Shown one piece after another: positions 28,587 through 56,671 of a stretch of 64,000 nt of DNA. The notes beneath the pieces are model-generated. The model worked only from the letters and a program-made list of their open reading frames with translations, did no database searches and was not told where the DNA came from. The stretch comes from an uncultured Alphaproteobacteria bacterium (GTDB lineage Bacteria; Pseudomonadota; Alphaproteobacteria; Geminicoccales; Geminicoccaceae). Position 1 is the stretch's first letter, and every line of letters starts with the position of its first letter. The stretch lies in contig CAVWCI010000015.1 of the NCBI GenBank assembly GCA_963753315.1, forward strand, positions 5,518 to 69,517, read 5' to 3'. The position numbers were made by a program, and so were the translations under genes.

Positions 28587-28636
28587 CTCAGTCCGCGTGC
28601 GCTGCGTCCGCTGATGGGGGGCGCGCGGCCGAGTTG

Positions 28637-29173
28637 CTACCCTGCCCGGCGCGTCGCTGCCGCGGCGGCTGGCTTTGTGGCCTGCTGGCCCGGTCTGGCG
28701 GCGGAGCCGAGCAAGCGCTCGCCGCTGGTGTCGACCAGGGTGAGCTGCGCGCCGACACCGCACGCGGCCAGCGCCGCATGCAGCCGTTCGACCTTGGAAC
28801 CGCGGTATCTCGGATCGACAAGGCGCCGCACGTCCTTCTCGTCGACCCAGAGACGGCGCTCAGCTCCGATTTGCTGATCCCGTCACGCCGCATCGCGCTG
28901 AAGAGCGCTGCCTTGTACGCAAGCAACGGCGGAAGAGGCACAGCACGCATGCCGCGGCGCAATGGCGTCGGTGCGGGAATGTCCTCCCCGTCGGCGATCC
29001 GCGCCGCCACGGCCTCGGCCAGACAATCGGCTGCCTCCGCGAGCGCTTCCCCCTCGTCGTCGGCGTCGGTGAGGGCCTCCGGAAAGTCCGGAAAGCGGAC
29101 CTGGACCCGCACCTTCATCGTCCCGCATCAACGTCGCGGGCCACGCCAGAACCGTCTCCTCCGTTCGCGCCAT
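28637..29173 (-). pseudogene. hicB: HicB-family antitoxin, frame-disrupted
   Basis: Three frames: MARTEETVLAWPATLMRDDEG; then VRVQVRFPDFPEALTDADDEGEALAEAADCLAEAVAARIADGEDIPAP...GISKSEL; then VRRLVDPRYRGSKVERLHAALAACGVGAQLTLV. Shifts are near 29110 and 28850. Confidence 0.6.
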
Positions 29174-30605: not shown

Positions 30606-33066
30606 TCACGGGATCGGGCAGGGCTCGGCCGCCCAGATCTCGGCGGCGTACTCCGCGATCGTCCGGTCGCTCGAGAATTTTCCCGAGCGGGCGACGTTGA
30701 CGATCGCCTTGCGGGTCCACTCTTCGGGGTCGGCGTAAAGCGCTCCGAGCCGGGCCTGCGCGGCCGCGTAGGCCGAAAGGTCGGCCAGGTGCATGTAGTA
30801 GTCGCCCTCGGTCAGCAAGGTGTCCCAGATCGGCTGAAAGATCCCGGGCTCGTCGGGGTTGAAGTGGCCCGCGCGGATCAGGTCGAGCGCGGCCCGGGTC
30901 TCGGGCTCGTTGTGGTAGTGCCACCAGGGGCTGTACCAGCCGCGGCTGGCCTCCACCTGCTCCGTGCTCAGCCCGAACAGGAAGACGTTGTCCTCGCCCG
31001 CCTCCTCGGCGATCTCGATCGTCGCCCCGTCGCGCGTGCCCACGGTCAAGGCGCCGTTCATCATCAGCTTCATGTTGCTCGTGCCGCTCGCCTCGTAGCC
31101 TGCCGTGGAGATCTGCTCCGAGACGTCGCTCGCCGGGATCAGCCGCTGCGCCACCGTCACGCCGTAGTTCGGCACGAACACGAGGTTGATCCGGCCGCGC
31201 GTGGCGGGCTCCGCGGCGAGCGCCGCCGCGATGCTGTTGGCGAGCTTGATGATCAGCTTGGCCAGGCGATAGGCGGGTGCTGCCTTGCCGGCGAGGAAGA
31301 AGGTGCGCGGCGGCACATCGAGGCCCGGATCGGCGCGCAGGCGGTTGTAGAGCACGACGATGTGCAAAAGGTTCAGGATCTGCCGCTTGTACGCGTGAAT
31401 GCGCTTGATCTGGCTGTCGAACATGGTCTCGGGGTCGACCACCTGACCGGTCGTCTGCTTCAGCCAGTCGACGAAGCGGACCTTGGCGTCGCGCCTGGCC
31501 TTCTGGAAGCTCTTGCGGAACGCGGCGTCGTCCGCGAGCGGCAGGAGGCCCTCGAGACGGTCGAGGTCCGTGACCCAGCGGTCGCCGATCGCCTCGGTGA
31601 TCAGGCGTGCTAGCGGCGGATTGGCCAGCAGCAGCCAGCGCCGCGGCGTGACGCCGTTGGTCTTGTTGGTGAAGCGCTCCGGCCAGATCTCGGCGAAGTC
31701 CTTCAAAAGACGCGTGCGCAGCAGCTCCGAATGGATCGCGGCGACCCCGTTGGTGCGATGCGCGCCGACCACGGCAAGATGCGCCATGCGGACCTGCCGG
31801 GCCGGCCCTTCCTCGATCAGGCTCATGCGGCGCAGCCGCTCGGCATCGCCCGGATGGCGCGAGCTGACGTCGTCCAGAAAGCGGCGATTGATCTCGTAGA
31901 CGATCTCCAGCAGACGCGGCGCCAGGATCTCGAACATCCCGACCGGCCACTTCTCGAGCGCCTCGGGCAGCAGGGTGTGGTTGGTGTAGGCGAGCGTGCC
32001 GACCGTGAGCTTCCAGGCCTCGTCCCAGCCGAGATGGGCCTCGTCCAGCAGGATGCGCATGAGCTCCGCCACCGCCATCGCCGGATGCGTGTCGTTGAGC
32101 TGGATCGCGACCTTGTCGGGCAGGGCGTGCCAGTCGTTGCTGCGGCGAAAGCGCCTGACGATGTCGGCCAGCGAGCAGCAGACCAGAAAATACTCCTGCA
32201 GGAAGCGCAGCGCATGGCCTTCGACGGTGGAATCGTCGGGATACAGCACGCGCGTGACCGTCTCGGCCGCCATGCGGTCGACCAGCGCGCCGACGAAGTC
32301 GCCGGTGCTGAACTCGCCGAAGTCGAAGTAGTCGGGCGAGGCAGCACTCCCAGAGCCGCAGGCTGTTGATCGCCTTGCCGCCGTAGCCGACGACCGGCCG
32401 GTCGTAGGGCACGCCGAGCAGGCAGGAGGGGCGGTCGCGCACCACGCGCAGGCGGCCGGCCTCCAGCGCGAACGAGCACGCGATCGGCACGTGCACGGTC
32501 TCGCGCGGGCGCACGACCTCCCAGGGATCGGGCCGCAGCAGCCAGGGATCGGGCCGCTCGACCTGCCAGCCGTTGTCGATCTCCTGGCGAAAGATGCCGT
32601 ACTCGTAGCGCAGGCCGTAGCCGGTCGCCGGGATCTGCATGGTCGCGAGCGAATCGATGAAGCAGGCGGCCAGGCGCCCGAGCCCGCCATTGCCGAGCCC
32701 GGCATCCGGCTCGGCCTCGAGCACCTCGGCCCAGTCCTGGCGCGGGTCCGAGCCGAGGTCCTTGCGCACCAGCGCCTCGAGCCCGAGGTTGATGATGTTG
32801 TTGGCGAGCGAGCGGCCGAGCAGGAACTCCATCGAGAGGTAGTAGACCCGCTTGGCGTTCGCCTGGTCCTGCGTCTTCTGGGTCAGCAGCCAGCGCTGGC
32901 TCAGGACGTCGCGCAGCGAGCGCGCCACGGCCTCGAAGCGCTCGCGCTGATCGGCGTTCTCGAGGCTCACCACGTGGTCGAAGACCAGGTGGCGGTCGTA
33001 GTCGTCCTCGCCGCGCAGCCGCACCGGGCCGACCTCGTACTGCTTCAGGATGTCGTCGTTGGCCAT
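30606..33066 (-). pseudogene. glgP: glycogen/maltodextrin phosphorylase, frame-disrupted
   Basis: The N-terminus (MANDDILKQYEV...YYLSMEFLLGRSL...GLGNGGLGRLAACFIDS) is in the frame of ORF 29182..33255. The remainder is in ORF 30606..32705 (...TNHTLLPEALEKW...EASGTSNMKLMMNGALTVGTRDGATIE). There is a single shift near 32345. Confidence 0.9.
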
Positions 33067-33118
33067 GGTCTCACAACGCAGTATGCCGCCGCCCTGATCG
33101 ACGCGGCCATGGAGATGC

Positions 33119-33508
33119 CTACTCTGCTGCGACGCTCGAAGGCGGCTCGACGACCTTGGTCGCGAAATTGGCCGGCGAGACGATCTCCAGCACCTCGAAG
33201 TCGTCCGAGCAGGCGATCTCGCGGTGCTTGATCGCGGGCGTCTGCAGGATCGCATCGCCCTTGCGGATCGTGCGCTGCCCTTGCCCCTCGTACTCGAAGG
33301 TCGCCCAGCCGTTCAGCACGAGCACGAACTGGAAGTCGCACTCGTGGATGTGCCAGTGCTGCACCTGGTCCTTCTGCTTCTTGCCGTTGTGCCGGATGAT
33401 GTGGGCGACGTAGTCCCCCTTGGTCCCGTCCTTGATGCCGAGGTCGCGGTAATCGAAAATCTCGCGCAGGCCGGGCGCCCACTTGGCATCGCCCGCCTGG
33501 TTGTGCAC
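33119..33508 (-). CDS. cupin-domain protein
   Basis: 129-aa ORF with a GTG start and cupin motifs HWHIHECDFQFVLVLNGWATFEYEG and GDAILQTPAIKHREI. Confidence 0.7.
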   Translation of the reverse strand: MHNQAGDAKWAPGLREIFDYRDLGIKDGTKGDYVAHIIRHNGKKQKDQVQHWHIHECDFQFVLVLNGWATFEYEGQGQRTIRKGDAILQTPAIKHREIACSDDFEVLEIVSPANFATKVVEPPSSVAAE

Positions 33509-33591
33509 GAAGTCCCACGCCTTCGTCCCTTTGCCGCCATCATCGCCTCCATTGCGTTCGGCCCGTCGTCACGGACCGTCCCTGCAACCCG

Positions 33592-33637: not shown

Positions 33638-33674
33638 ACTGCCTGCTCGGCGCTACGCCTGAGCCGCCGCATCG

Positions 33675-35138
33675 TCAGCCCGCTGGCGCGAGCCGGTTCG
33701 CGAGGGTCGGTGTGTTCGTCGGGCCTCGCCAGTCTAGTAGCGCTAGCATGATGCGCTCAACGACTGTCTGGAGGCGTTTCTGCTCCTGGACGATGACCGC
33801 AATGGCGACCTCTTCCGCCCCGTGGACCAGCGAATTGCGAATCCTGATGGTACAACGCAGCGCGTCATGACCTCCGATGTCGTCCAGATTGACCTTCAGC
33901 CGCTTCAAATGTTTGTTAAGTCTCTGCCGAAATGCCGGGCGTGCCAGTTCGGAGATCTTTGCGCTGATCACCGAGACAGTCTGAGGATTCTTGCCCATGT
34001 CCGTGAGTTGGCTACGTAAATATTGATCAATAGTGCGCAGTTCTTTGGGGCTTATCACTTCCCAAGGGTATTTAAGGTCAAGCGAACTGACGATTTTCTC
34101 TAGGCAGCTAAAGAGAAGGGTGAATTGTTCGTCTACGGTCGGTGCAGACTGCGCAGCTAAGTATATGAGGATCGGCAATCGAAGTCTCATTCCCTCCAGA
34201 GATCTCTTTTCGTATGCCGTGAAGGCACCGTTTATGAACCGGCGGACATCCCTAGATGGCAGCACGATGTCCTCCCACCGAACCCGCCAATTCGAACTCT
34301 CTCGAGTGTCGCCCCGATACTGTTCGAGTAGCCTACCGTCGGACCATAGGGTCCGCGCATACCAAGTCACATTGGACTTAGAGAGAAAAGAGACGAGAAG
34401 ACACAGAACTTCGGCAACCTCCAGCGCTCGCGCCTCGAAGTTTGAGTCCGTGCGTTCGAGATCGCGATCGGTAAGCGTCAGAGAGAAGGCTTCAGCTTCG
34501 ACAGAGAGGTGCAGCTTTTCGAGGGCACGATATCTATCTTCGTGTGGGGGCAGCAAACGTTCGGCCTCTCGGCGGCCGGCATAGAGAAAATGCGGTTGTG
34601 CAGTGATCGCCAAATCCCCGACTTCAGAGATACGCAGATTGGCACTGCGAAATTCGGTTTTCGTGCTTCCCAAATAAGAGAACGTCCGAATTGCGTCCGA
34701 CATCCAAACGAGCGTTGGCCCCGTCAGAAGCAAAGTCATCTGACGGTTACCCATTCCGCGCTGCCCGTAGTCGCAGTCGATCGTGATATCGTAGGGTTCG
34801 AAGCGGCCGAGGATCTGTTGAATAATTTTGCTTTCGTCATCAGGGTAAATGCGCGCGCTCATTTCTCGAAGCAGAACCTGCCTCGAACGAACCTTCTCGC
34901 GGCCCTGGGCTGCGGAAACACTTTCTAGCTCGCATACAGGTGACTGGTGTGCATGGAAGAAAGAATTAAGTTCAGGCCAGTCAGCGGCTGTTCCGCGAAT
35001 GATGCCGATCGGGGGGTGAGCGTTGAGGGGCGAATAGCGAATGTCGATGGAGAACGGTTTCGTCGTAAGGTCTCCGTCCCGGAACACGCCCGCGAACTCC
35101 AACGATTTCGTGAAAAGGACTGTGTCGACCGCGGACAT
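33675..35138 (-). CDS. orphan 487-aa protein with a C-terminal HEPN-like Rx4H motif (candidate abortive-infection/defence RNase)
   Basis: Intact 487-aa ORF with an ATG start and low GC. The C-terminal region reads ...GGHDALRCTIRIRNSLVHGAEEVAIAVIVQEQKRL..., with RNSLVH at aa 434-439 (33822-33839). I recognise no family in the N-terminal ~400 aa. Confidence 0.75.
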   Translation of the reverse strand: MSAVDTVLFTKSLEFAGVFRDGDLTTKPFSIDIRYSPLNAHPPIGIIRGTAADWPELNSFFHAHQSPVCELESVSAAQGREKVRSRQVLLREMSARIYPDDESKIIQQILGRFEPYDITIDCDYGQRGMGNRQMTLLLTGPTLVWMSDAIRTFSYLGSTKTEFRSANLRISEVGDLAITAQPHFLYAGRREAERLLPPHEDRYRALEKLHLSVEAEAFSLTLTDRDLERTDSNFEARALEVAEVLCLLVSFLSKSNVTWYARTLWSDGRLLEQYRGDTRESSNWRVRWEDIVLPSRDVRRFINGAFTAYEKRSLEGMRLRLPILIYLAAQSAPTVDEQFTLLFSCLEKIVSSLDLKYPWEVISPKELRTIDQYLRSQLTDMGKNPQTVSVISAKISELARPAFRQRLNKHLKRLKVNLDDIGGHDALRCTIRIRNSLVHGAEEVAIAVIVQEQKRLQTVVERIMLALLDWRGPTNTPTLANRLAPAG

Positions 35139-35164
35139 CTGGCCAAGTCTTTCGATGCTCGCTT

Positions 35165-35210
35165 CAGTTCACACGACCGTGACGCCGCTGTCCACCGAAA
35201 GCACCTGGCC
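35165..35210. repeat. right copy of the 46-bp direct repeat (functional 3-prime end of the SDR gene)
   Basis: Identical to 33592-33637. It encodes the last 13 codons GQVLSVDSGVTVV plus the stop of the SDR gene on the minus strand. Confidence 0.92.
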
Positions 35211-35949
35211 CGTGGTGATCGCGGATTCGTCCGAGGCGAGGTAGACCGCCATGTCGGCGACGTGGATCGGCAGGCCCAGGCCGAGGAGGTGAGTCTCGCC
35301 GATCTTCGCGATCTCCGGGCTCGCCGCCATCAGCCGCTTCACGCGCTCCGTCAAGGTCACCGAGGGTGCGATCGCGTTCACCCGGATCTTGTAGGGCGCA
35401 TATTCGACCGCCATCGAGCGCGTCATCGAGGCGATGCCGCCCTTGGCCGCGGTGTAGCAGTCGCGCCCGGGCAGGGCCATGAGCGCCACGTTCGACGACA
35501 TGTTGATGACCGAGCCGCCGCCCGCCTCGATGATTTTCGGGATCGCAAGCTTGCTGCAAAGGAACGTGCCGTAGAGATCCAGCCTGATCACCCGCCAGAA
35601 CTCCTCGTCCGGGCGCCTGCGTGACCGGGCCGTCGGCAGTGGTCGAGCCGCCGGCGTTGTTGTGCAGCACGTTCAGCCTGCCGAAATTCTCGATCGTCGC
35701 CGCGATCGCGGCCGCGACGCTCGAAGGCTCGGTGACGTCGCAGTGCACGAACCGGGCATCGCCGCCCGCATTGCCCGCGGCCGCGCGCGCCGCCTCGGCC
35801 GCGGCCTCGCCGCTCTCGCGGTCGATCTCGGCGATCACCACCTTCGCCCCTTCTTCGGCGAAGCGCTCGGCGGTCGCCCGGCCGATGCCGCCGCCGCCAC
35901 CGGTGATGAACGCCACCTTGCCAGCCAGCCTGCCGCCCGCCCGTGCCAT
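35169..35949 (-). pseudogene. short-chain dehydrogenase/reductase (SDR), frame-disrupted
   Basis: The N-terminus GKVAFITGGGGGIGRATAERFAEEGAKVV...NNAG (ORF 35164..35949) continues in ORF 35169..35591 (LYGTFLCSK...NMSS...YTAAKGGIASMTRSMAVEYAPYKIRVNAIAP). The shift is near 35600. Confidence 0.8.
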
Positions 35950-54632: not shown

Positions 54633-54884
54633 CGCTCCCCCTCGCTTCGCCGGAGCGTCGTCGCAAGCACCGGGCCTGTCAAGGAAGAGGGGGCAGTGGT
54701 CTAAGGCGTGGAGAGTTCGACGAACGCCACGTTCTGGCGCAAGCCCACCATTTGGACCGGACAGAAGCCATGGCAGCCTTGGTCATGGGCGGGTATTCCT
54801 CACGTCGGTTGTGAACGTCCATCGACGGCACGGAGGCGCGATTTATTCCTGACATGCCTGTTGGACGCGGCTAGAGTGGCAATC

Positions 54885-55778
54885 ATGGACTTTCGCTCAC
54901 TCCTGGCTCGGCACCGCTCAGATCTTGCTCTGGTCATTGGCAATGGTATCAACAGATATGGCTCGGCGCCCAACACGAACTCATGGCACGATCTGTTGGT
55001 AACGCTCGCTAGCAAGTTTATTGGAAAACAAAGTGAAAAAATCCCGGCCGGCATCGCACTCACTGAGTTTTACGATATTCTAGAATTGAAGTCTGGACCG
55101 AGCGTACCTGGGAAATCGCTGCAAAAAGAATTCAGCAATCTGATGCGAGAATGGACGCCGCACGAGCATCATAGGCGGATTGTCTACTGGGCAGCTCAAG
55201 CCCGATGCCCGTTGCTAACCACAAATTTTGAGAATGTCCTCGGCGAAGCCGGTGCGTGCACGTTGCTCCATACCCAACGAGATGGATTTACGGATTACTA
55301 TCCCTGGGAAACCTACTACGGACATGGACCGCTTACTGATCCTAGCGTCGGGTTTGGAATATGGCATATCAATGGGATGGAACGCTATCGACGCAGCATC
55401 CGACTCGGATTAACCCACTATATGGGATCTGTCGAGAGAGCAAGAAGTTGGATTCACAAAGGCAAGGAGAGAAGGCTCTTTTCTGGAAACAGCGCACGCG
55501 AGTGGCGAGGCGCGGGCACTTGGCTACACATAGTTTTTAATAAACCCCTTTTGATCTTTGGCCTCGGTCTTGAAGAAAATGAAATTTTCCTTAGATGGCT
55601 TCTTATAGAGAGAGCAAGATATTTCCGAAAGGTTCCCGAAAGAAAGAAGCAAGCGTGGTATATGCATATTGACGAGATGGCTGGCTCAGGAAAGCTCTTT
55701 TTCCTGGAAGGCGTGGGCGTCAAGCCTATCAGGGCCAGGAGCTACGACGAGCTGTACGGTGTGGCGACCTGGACTTGA
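54885..55778 (+). CDS. standalone SIR2-like (SIR2_2-type) protein, candidate NAD-consuming defence effector
   Basis: Low-GC ORF 54708..55778; the likely ATG is at 54885 (297 aa). Motifs occur in SIR2 order: LALVIGNGIN (Rossmann glycine loop), PLLTTNFENVL (Asn 55224-55226), GIWHINGM (His 55365-55367), PLLIFGLGLEENEIFLRWLL. Confidence 0.7.
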   Translation: MDFRSLLARHRSDLALVIGNGINRYGSAPNTNSWHDLLVTLASKFIGKQSEKIPAGIALTEFYDILELKSGPSVPGKSLQKEFSNLMREWTPHEHHRRIVYWAAQARCPLLTTNFENVLGEAGACTLLHTQRDGFTDYYPWETYYGHGPLTDPSVGFGIWHINGMERYRRSIRLGLTHYMGSVERARSWIHKGKERRLFSGNSAREWRGAGTWLHIVFNKPLLIFGLGLEENEIFLRWLLIERARYFRKVPERKKQAWYMHIDEMAGSGKLFFLEGVGVKPIRARSYDELYGVATWT

Positions 55779-56321
55779 TGGGCCCGCCCAAAAGCACCCC
55801 TGATCGGGACAGGGAGTGCGTCCTCCTCGACGGCGGAGAGCGAGAAGGGTGGCGAACCGCGCCTGAGCCGATCGATCGAGCCCCTCGACTGGAACGCCGG
55901 CGCCCTTTGATCTCGAAGGCACCCTCGACCCCGGCAGCGACCTGCGAAGAGCAGTTCTTGCCCGATCGAAGACCCTTCTCCTGCCGCGACGGCGCCCTGG
56001 CGCATGGTGGTGCAAAAATGCGACGGGTGACGCAAGAATGCGACGGGGTGGCGCATATCACATGCCGCAGCGCACGGTGCGCGTCGCATGCCTTCCCTTC
56101 GCCCGCGCGGTGCGGGACGATCATTCCTGGAGCTCTGATTCGGTTAAACTTGGCACTGCCTGTTGCAGCGCCTCCCCATTGGCGAGGCCTCGTCCGCACC
56201 AGCCTCCCCTTGAACCAACCCGGAAGCCGCCATGCGTCGTCCCGGAGCCGCGTCTGGCGCGGCGTCTTCGAGCATTCCCCGCGCCGCAGGTCGCCACCGC
56301 CGGCGCGCGCGAAAAAAACCA

Positions 56322-56353
56322 ATCGAACCTGAAGCCCGCGGAAATCCTGGCGA
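56322..56353 (+). repeat. copy 1 of an imperfect 32-nt direct repeat in a non-coding stretch
   Basis: ATCGAACCTGAAGCCCGCGGAAATCCTGGCGA matches copy 2 at 28 of 32 positions. Confidence 0.6.
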
Positions 56354-56480
56354 AGTCGCGCCCGCTACGGCCGCGGACGAACCCGGGACCGTCCTTGAGC
56401 TGCGACCTGGAGCCGCCACACGGTATCCGGCGGCCTAGCGACCTGAGTCGCGCCAGAAGCCGGCGCACGGCAGGAATCCG

Positions 56481-56512
56481 ATCGAACCCGAAGCCCGCAG
56501 AAACCCTTGCGA
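56481..56512 (+). repeat. copy 2 of the imperfect 32-nt direct repeat
   Basis: ATCGAACCCGAAGCCCGCAGAAACCCTTGCGA lies 159 nt downstream of copy 1. Confidence 0.6.
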
Positions 56513-56671
56513 GATCAGCTCCGTGACGGCCGCTGGGCCTGCAAACGCTGCAGCGCACCGCCGGGCCGACCAAGCTTGGCGACCGGGCGCCGCTGCAGGA
56601 AGCCGAACGCCACGGGTCCAGGGCACGGGCGGCCCTGGCGCCGCAGCGTCAGGTGGTGTGAGGCCTGGGGA

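Follow-up and report, generated by a model that had tools for sequence, protein, structure and literature searches.

The stretch of DNA analyzed here (the window) comprises 64,000 nucleotides (nt) of an uncultured alphaproteobacterium of the family Geminicoccaceae (assembly GCA_963753315.1, contig CAVWCI010000015.1, positions 5,518 to 69,517 of the forward strand), and our subject is a single gene on its minus strand, lodged between a gene for a short-chain dehydrogenase/reductase (SDR) and a cupin gene. A preliminary description, made from the sequence alone, had presented this gene as an open reading frame (ORF) of 487 amino acids (aa) at 33675..35138, and the ORF, the C-terminal sequence quoted for it, and its RNSLVH motif at 33839..33822 are all found as given. 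The region is compositionally foreign: the guanine-plus-cytosine (GC) content of the ORF is 0.548 as against 0.675 and 0.678 in its 2-kb flanks, and the GC profile of the window falls to 0.53 at 34001-35000, within surroundings of about 0.68-0.72. The parts of the encoded protein are as follows.

33675..35138, minus strand: complete ORF, 487 aa, with a beta-rich N-terminal region, a helix-hairpin middle and a predicted Apea-like HEPN domain
34464..35138, minus strand: beta-rich N-terminal region, putative sensor, aa 1-225 (from the AlphaFold2 secondary structure)
34149..34463, minus strand: helix-hairpin middle, aa 226-330, with conserved S250, W259 and F301
33729..34148, minus strand: predicted HEPN domain, aa 331-470, with helices 335-356, 364-380, 385-399, 403-413, 424-439 and 446-467
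34098..34100, minus strand: codon of E347, a near-invariant acidic residue in the motif FLALEKL of the first HEPN helix
33822..33839, minus strand: R434-N-S-L-V-H439, the predicted catalytic Rx4H motif, at the C-terminal end of helix 424-439

Taken by itself, the RNSLVH motif is not above chance: an Rx4H motif is present in 58% of shuffles of the window protein (mean 0.82 per shuffle), and the protein contains five other Rx4-6H matches. The motif becomes significant only through its conservation across the family. In an alignment of 113 sequences, with identity to the window protein down to 15% and mean pairwise identity of 19-31% depending on the region, R434 is the sole invariant column (100%), and H439 and E347, each at 99%, are the other two of the three most conserved positions, so that the expected retention of the arginine and the histidine among homologues is borne out; in a 70-sequence subset, these three columns are the only invariant ones. 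The residue following R434 is N in 79 sequences, D in 29 and H in 2 (110 of the 113), and the family consensus of the motif reads TRNxLFH. HEPN domains are built on an all-alpha core of up-down helices, in which an Rx4-6H motif closes helix 3 and runs into the loop before helix 4; this motif, a polar residue (N, D or H) after its arginine and a conserved acidic residue upstream are the hallmarks of active HEPN RNases (Anantharaman 2013, PMC3710099). The family displays the motif, the polar residue and, with E347 in helix 335-356, the acidic residue; the exact Ex3[KR] spacing around E347 is not seen in the window protein.

The AlphaFold2 model built from the 113-sequence alignment is a confident one (predicted local distance difference test [pLDDT] score of 94, predicted template modeling [pTM] score of 0.91), and a model from a 7-sequence alignment had a pLDDT of 45. 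Helix 424-439 of the confident model ends in RNSLVH and is followed by a 6-residue loop and then by the long helix 446-467, in agreement with the published placement of the HEPN motif and with the helical setting originally ascribed to it. Upstream of the Rx4H helix lie helices 335-356, which carries E347, and 364-380, with extra helices inserted at 385-413; additional helices between HEPN helices 2 and 3 are common. The protein ends about 20 aa beyond helix 4, and the domain spans about 140 aa (331-470), not the approximately 90 aa originally allotted to it.

The similarity to the Pfam family HEPN_Apea (PF18739) was exposed only by scanning 70 relatives, the window protein alone giving only a weak match to RTasHEPN, the PADLOC profile of an RT-associated HEPN. 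Twenty of the 70 relatives match PF18739 at E≤0.01 (best 8.7e-6), with positions 1-133 of the 136 in the profile aligning to about aa 320-457, and the two Cas13-ApeA profiles of PADLOC are weakly matched by 13 and 8 of the 70, respectively, which upholds the HEPN-like nature proposed for the C-terminus. One distant member, P0175 (P-labels denote family members and L-labels fetched loci or contigs), has a precomputed PF18739 match listed as faint. From these profiles, the motifs and the predicted secondary structure, rather than from superposition of three-dimensional structures, we assign the C-terminal domain to the Apea clade of HEPN domains, and the family would then be a peripheral sister group of PF18739, linked to it through relatives of the window protein.

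The family, its genomic contexts and the proposed function

The protein had been taken for an orphan, and that is not the case. A word-indexed search of 5.8 billion clustered proteins found 7 relatives, 61-71% identical, of which none has a Pfam domain or a name that indicates a function, and an exhaustive HMMER profile search of 1.84 billion cluster representatives recovered 545 more distant proteins at E≤1e-3, 200 at ≤1e-10 and 68 at ≤1e-30, mostly of 465-490 aa and aligned end to end. For a typical distant member, the relatives trace to uncultured lineages, among them Zixibacteria, WOR-3 and Calditrichaeota, as well as to sediment metagenomes, and those with a named source are all labeled 'hypothetical'. 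Searches of plasmids gave a single distant member, a 477-aa hypothetical protein of Xanthomonas campestris plasmids (WP_274361204.1), where insertion sequence (IS) elements flank it; it belongs to the family over its full length (hhalign 98.8%, E=9e-17). A homologue search with the 70-sequence profile reached no further than one with the single sequence, and a genome-contig scan for the window protein yielded no match. With no Pfam or NCBIfam name and only weak PADLOC matches, the family appears to have been missed by current annotation. The ratio of nonsynonymous to synonymous substitution rates (dN/dS) is 0.15-0.22 in all 10 pairs of 5 close alleles, and in both halves of the protein; these values indicate that the gene is maintained by selection and that the family is under purifying selection.

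The N-terminal and middle regions are common to the whole family. In the AlphaFold2 model, beta strands extend across residues 11-224, and the middle region consists of a long helix (231-253), a beta-hairpin (258-275) and helices that lead to the HEPN core. Mean pairwise identity among the 113 sequences is 19% in aa 1-225, the most divergent part of the protein, 25% in aa 226-330 and 31% in the HEPN domain; the conserved glycines, aromatic residues and other positions of the N-terminal and middle part include F9, G49, W145, S250, W259 and F301. The N-terminal part has no match in Pfam, NCBIfam or the PDB, and the Pfam models of N-terminal regions matched none of the 70 members at E≤0.01 and none of ten members at E≤1. 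The uncharacterized PHROG family phrog_22870 is matched by 29 of the 70. Foldseek with the full-length model gave only faint Hcp-, tail-tube- and split-barrel-like matches for the N-terminal part, to be treated as a lead only, and no significant match in BFVD. The preliminary description had posited an unrecognized N-terminal sensor: it is right in that no Pfam N-terminal model matches, but the region is conserved and beta-rich family-wide, and an architecture of this kind was described in 2013 (see below).

Restriction-modification (R-M) genes adjoin the family member in four of the six long contexts of distant relatives. A Type ISP R-M enzyme is encoded directly upstream of P0178, P0175 is followed after 44 nt by an N6_N4 methyltransferase-Mrr fusion, and P0172 belongs to an R-M island. 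P0169 has a type I S subunit/RadC on one side and DUF4238 on the other, and a large serine recombinase is located at a distance of a few kb. These contexts of distant members point to defense. The genes found near relatives also include those of mobile elements, namely, IS elements, serine recombinases and an integrase. P0006, one of the close relatives, belongs to a low-GC island and is located directly upstream of a large serine recombinase. On contig L001 (2990-13454), the P0006 homologue is found among low-GC hypothetical genes, one of them with an RHS-repeat match; the gene directly after it encodes a 594-aa large serine recombinase, and another serine-recombinase gene, which is split, is found about 8 kb beyond, so that this segment is probably an integrated element. 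No recurrent neighbor or small partner ORF was seen across the contexts, and no RNA family (Rfam), repeat array or tandem repeat that might serve as an RNA antitoxin was found. Because, in addition, the cassette in the window has no room for another gene, a one-gene system is the simplest reading, and the single-gene character claimed at the outset is retained: the cassette holds one ORF, and there is no conserved partner.

In the light of these observations, we consider it reasonably likely that the gene encodes a single-polypeptide, ApeA-like abortive-infection or defense RNase that represents a large uncharacterized family; a one-gene anti-phage system, related to yet distinct from ApeA, is plausible. 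We infer the defense function, the RNase activity and the mechanism from the analogy with ApeA, PrrC and DARNA. Under this scenario, two HEPN domains would dimerize to form a composite, metal-independent RNase site from R434 and H439 that is kept inactive until the N-terminal and middle region senses an infection cue, which could be a small molecule, a nucleic acid or a phage protein. Activation would then lead to cleavage of RNA, probably in tRNA anticodon loops, and to translation arrest, such that phage propagation would fail, in an abortive infection.

Several observations weigh against this interpretation. No relatives were detected on viral contigs (by scanning) or in phages (by tblastn), and with the window protein as the query, none were found on plasmids. 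Metabolic or housekeeping genes, amid which P0061 is found, surround the family member in two long contexts as well as in the window. There is no promoter- or terminator-like signal near the gene, a point that bears on its expression. The window protein itself matches nothing in Pfam (E≤10) or NCBIfam, and its sole PADLOC match, to RTasHEPN, is weak (E=0.0013, aa 363-442). The PF18739 scores of the relatives inspected, 12.5-23.1 bits, are below the gathering threshold of 24.4. Finally, Foldseek with the full-length model yielded no significant match in the PDB, the best HEPN structure being Csm6 (5fsh) at E~1, and a sequence-profile search of the PDB returned zero matches.

An alternative is that the protein is a HEPN toxin involved in mobile-element addiction or intragenomic conflict, either of the toxin-antitoxin (TA) type or directed against plasmids, rather than in phage defense. 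HEPN domains are common as TA toxins, and the relatives on or beside IS elements, serine recombinases and an integrase would fit such a role. A TA module, however, would be hard to reconcile with the lack of a conserved neighboring small ORF across the contexts, with a cassette that has room for the ORF only, and with the lack of an RNA family or repeat array that could be the RNA antitoxin. Furthermore, a non-catalytic part of about 330 aa suits an autoinhibited sensor better than a free toxin. We therefore regard the toxin alternative as rather unlikely.

The insertion at the SDR-cupin junction

The features that surround the ORF are listed here from the SDR gene to the cupin gene.

35169..35949, minus strand: host SDR gene (adh_short), frame-broken at about 35613, with ends duplicated around the cassette
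35165..35210, no strand assigned: left copy of a 46-nt direct repeat, formed by the final 13 codons of the SDR gene, its stop codon and 4 nt
35139..35164, minus strand: 26-nt 5' leader, best matching cupin codons 2-8 of locus L007
33638..33674, minus strand: 37-nt 3' flank, of which about 25 nt have a homologous counterpart in the 3' flank of the L006 allele and, partly, in those of L002 and L003
33592..33637, no strand assigned: right copy of the 46-nt direct repeat, an orphaned SDR 3' end between the cassette and the cupin gene
33119..33545, minus strand: host cupin gene (Cupin_2), directly downstream of the SDR gene in related genomes, with the start region frame-broken here

With the cupin protein as the probe, we fetched 80 syntenic loci, the closest of which come from metagenome-assembled genomes (MAGs) of Alphaproteobacteria and Geminicoccaceae. 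The SDR gene is directly followed by the cupin gene in L007, L013, L009, L026, L077 and others, which establishes the empty site and, with it, the low-GC insertion that the preliminary description had suspected. The gene is a horizontally acquired, 1.5-kb, low-GC, single-gene insertion at a conserved SDR-cupin junction. It is bracketed by the two copies of the 46-nt direct repeat, which is perfect and the right copy of which is 97.6% identical to the SDR 3' end of L007; the unique insert, 33638-35164, consists of the 26-nt leader, the ORF and 37 nt, with no second gene and no recombinase between the repeats. The leader itself is a probable remnant of a duplicated cupin 5' end, given its best match.

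A 71%-identical allele resides at the syntenic locus of L006, from another metagenome (and, independently, in L005), but there it lies on the opposite flank of the SDR gene. In L006, the 3' end of an ATP-binding cassette (ABC) ATPase gene is followed by a copy of about 140 nt of the SDR 5' end, the cassette and an intact SDR gene. The two repeat copies of this locus (191-330 and 1880-2019) form a mosaic: their first 68 nt are nearly identical (1 mismatch), and the following 72 nt differ at about 15 positions. This pattern fits a crossover with a diverged incoming allele. We considered the possibility that L005, a 1.69-kb Logan contig, was a 1.7-kb circle and rejected it; its ends fall at the sole mismatch between the L006 repeat copies, and L005 is a collapsed repeat in a k-mer assembly.

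The leaders of the window and L006 cassettes best match the same spot, cupin codons 2-13 (scores reached by 14 and 9 of 400 shuffles, respectively), whereas cupin-derived sequence is not significant in the leaders of the L001-L004 copies, which are found in unrelated contexts. The shared match implies that both insertions have the same left junction, in a duplicated cupin 5' end, and differ in their right junctions. A partial tandem duplication of the SDR-cupin segment, for example, by Campbell-type integration of a circularized fragment, followed by different deletions, would produce this pattern. The synonymous divergence (dS) between the two cassettes is 0.81, compared with 0.13 for the host SDR gene (81 codons) and 0.45 for the ABC gene (55 codons); together with the perfect 46-nt repeat, the higher value for the cassettes makes allele exchange or independent acquisition likelier than one ancient insertion. 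The cassette probably owes its arrival here not to a recombinase of its own but to a recombination event in which parts of the host SDR-cupin segment were duplicated. With duplicated host sequence around each of them, the two divergent alleles on either side of one host gene provide a concrete example of an unusual mode of spread, in which a one-gene candidate defense cassette could pass from genome to genome among relatives though it encodes no recombinase.

Could the 46-nt repeats, instead, be the attachment sites (attL and attR) of a minimal non-autonomous element that is moved in trans by an integrase targeting the SDR 3' end? Many integrative elements leave the 3' end of their target gene reconstituted, as the perfect direct repeat does here, and two relatives are located near large serine recombinases. 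Yet, there is no integrase within the repeats; the copies in L001-L005 have neither flanking repeats nor common element ends, and homology outside the ORF fades at different distances among copies; the L006 allele sits on the other side of the SDR gene with a mosaic repeat of about 140 nt; and both cassettes carry the upstream remnant of a cupin 5' end. The whole pattern fits homologous or illegitimate recombination in which the SDR-cupin segment was partly duplicated in tandem and deletions followed. It also counts against the att-site explanation that, to our knowledge, serine recombinases do not create 46-nt duplications. We consider this explanation quite unlikely.

Two other loci of Geminicoccaceae MAGs vary at the same place. 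In one (L051:5360-6003), the SDR gene between the ABC-ATPase and cupin genes is replaced by a segment of 56% GC that encodes a 144-aa ORF with an HNH motif (PF13392, E=3.4e-4; weak ZorE-like PADLOC match). In the other (L008:4700-5953), a 1.25-kb segment of normal GC content (67%) between the SDR and cupin genes carries, on the opposite strand, a 337-aa ORF with an N-terminal twin-arginine-like stretch and a HAHIDH motif, a putative metallo-beta-lactamase-like signature. The L051 case suggests that small foreign genes have a hotspot in the ABC-SDR-cupin locus, and L008 presents a further variant of the junction.

The state of the neighboring genes bears on a further possibility, that the insert is a silent passenger in this genome: a promoterless fragment, transferred not long ago, whose intactness reflects only its youth or a small number of error-prone homopolymers. 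The two halves of the SDR gene match positions 1-89 and 104-190 of the adh_short profile, each in a different frame, and comparison with L007, the closest related locus, traces the break to one extra C in a C-run at about 35613; breaks are found also at the cupin start (about 33524-33541) and in glycogen phosphorylase-like ORFs (30606-33255). Among related records, the nearest are MAGs from long-read data, and the probable cause of these breaks is therefore indel error of the assembly in homopolymers, not decay into pseudogenes. The original remark that the ORF is intact among frame-broken neighbors is therefore true, but its weight is slight: breaks that resemble long-read homopolymer error make intactness weak evidence of selection. 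This leaves intactness uninformative and so favors a passenger, as do the 26 nt of non-host leader without a promoter- or terminator-like signal and the perfect 46-nt repeat, which suggests a recent event. Conversely, homopolymers of at least 5 nt are not rarer in the cassette than in its flanks (1.4 per kb compared with 0.3-0.8 per kb), and the family-wide dN/dS of about 0.2 implies that the gene is maintained where it is present. Moreover, the gene is co-oriented with the SDR gene and starts 33 nt downstream of the SDR stop codon; with only 26 nt of non-host leader and no promoter-like signal, it is probably transcribed by read-through from the ABC-transporter/SDR operon. A silent passenger accordingly has little probability in our estimate.

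Comparison with ApeA and other HEPN systems

ApeA is a single-gene HEPN anti-phage system (Gao et al. 2020), for which a cryo-electron microscopy structure and a mechanism have been presented (bioRxiv 10.64898/2026.01.26.701840). Most of the protein is described as alpha-helical: its N-terminal domain is catenin-like, its Mid domain resembles PafA, and its HEPN domain (residues 335-583 in Ec2ApeA) is split and contains large insertions. It forms a decameric or dodecameric doughnut, binds a deoxydinucleotide ligand in a pocket between the N-terminal and HEPN domains, and cleaves tRNA anticodons (bioRxiv 10.64898/2026.01.26.701840). Like ApeA, the window protein combines in one polypeptide an extensive non-catalytic N-terminal part and, at the C-terminus, an Apea-clade HEPN domain with an Rx4H motif; neither has a partner gene, and the two share the ALE motif of the first HEPN helix (FLALEKL here, WIALES(L) in ApeA); an infection-activated RNase action would be expected in both cases. 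Unlike ApeA, it has 487 aa, a beta-rich region at aa 1-225, and a compact HEPN domain with a 6-residue loop between helices 3 and 4. When the family profile was aligned with hhalign against the first ~400 residues of 5 ApeA proteins taken from the supplement of that paper, the probability was 7.9%, with nothing aligned in aa 1-217; the sole alignment begins in the helix-hairpin region and extends to helix 1 of the HEPN domain, where FLALEKL is paired with WIALESL. The protein is thus best described, on these profile comparisons and on the model, as an ApeA-like variant and not as ApeA sensu stricto; of the ApeA-type class to which it had been assigned, the Apea-like HEPN clade stands and the strict identity does not.

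That it would be a plain member of the ApeA system, a doughnut-shaped oligomer activated by deoxydinucleotides (Gao 2020; Juozapaitis 2026), is very improbable: the Apea-like HEPN clade, the single-gene organization and the likeness of FLALEKL to WIALESL speak for it, but they are outweighed by the length of 487 aa, the beta-rich aa 1-225, the 6-residue loop and the end of the chain about 20 aa after helix 4, by the failure of the ApeA N-terminal residues to align, and by RTasHEPN being the sole PADLOC match of the window protein.

A precedent for the architecture comes from the computational prediction of 'ApeA-NTD1', a mostly beta region of about 300 aa with conserved aromatic residues that is fused to an Apea HEPN domain, as in PCC7424_5050; Apea-family HEPN domains were also noted as embedded in R-M operons (Anantharaman et al. 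2013, PMC3710099). The strands at 11-224, the hairpin at 258-275, the conserved F9, W145, W259 and F301, and the R-M genes that adjoin relatives are all similar to this description, and the N-terminal region may correspond to ApeA-NTD1; no Pfam N-terminal model matched in the 70 members. The HEPN anticodon nucleases of the PrrC, DARNA and HepS type share the Rx4H HEPN site and are infection-activated, tRNA-cleaving defense RNases. PrrC differs in its fusion to an ABC-ATPase and in being held in check by a restriction enzyme; DARNA, with an N-terminal HEPN domain and a Pds5-like helical C-terminal domain, was considered as a closer analogue and rejected for its opposite domain order.

What appears to be new here is an uncharacterized, widespread family that, judging from profiles and the structural model, couples a HEPN RNase of the Apea type with a different putative sensor rich in beta structure. 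Single-protein HEPN defense, as represented by ApeA and DARNA (both 2026 preprints), is only now understood mechanistically, and an Apea-type catalytic domain paired with a different beta-rich region offers a case for comparing different sensors that act on the same RNase; a confident structure model and hundreds of diverse members make the family ready for such a comparison. More tentatively still, and with considerable doubt, the family of about 470-490 aa could be a new, widespread single-gene anti-phage system with a beta-rich sensor and a trigger unlike the deoxydinucleotides of ApeA, carried in alphaproteobacterial (probably Geminicoccaceae) genomes by a recombinase-less, promoter-less cassette that integrates by recombination via captured SDR and cupin fragments and duplicates these, such that the host genes stay intact.

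Other features of the window

Two candidates from elsewhere in the window were dropped, the ORF at 28588-29118 as HicB-like, which has no Pfam match, and the ORF at 54888-55778 as SIR2-like, which has no match in Pfam or PADLOC. The latter is the shorter, 296-aa version, starting MDFRSLLARH, of an intact ORF on the plus strand (54708-55778; 356 aa from a GTG codon) that occupies a second foreign pocket at about 54750-55780, with a GC content of 0.44-0.58 in surroundings of about 0.70. Neither a Pfam or PADLOC match nor a long flanking direct repeat was found for the 54708-55778 ORF, which may be another horizontally acquired single gene. Downstream of it, an apparently non-coding stretch contains a 59-nt imperfect direct repeat (56316-56374 and 56475-56533) with 76% identity between the copies and a spacing of 159 nt.

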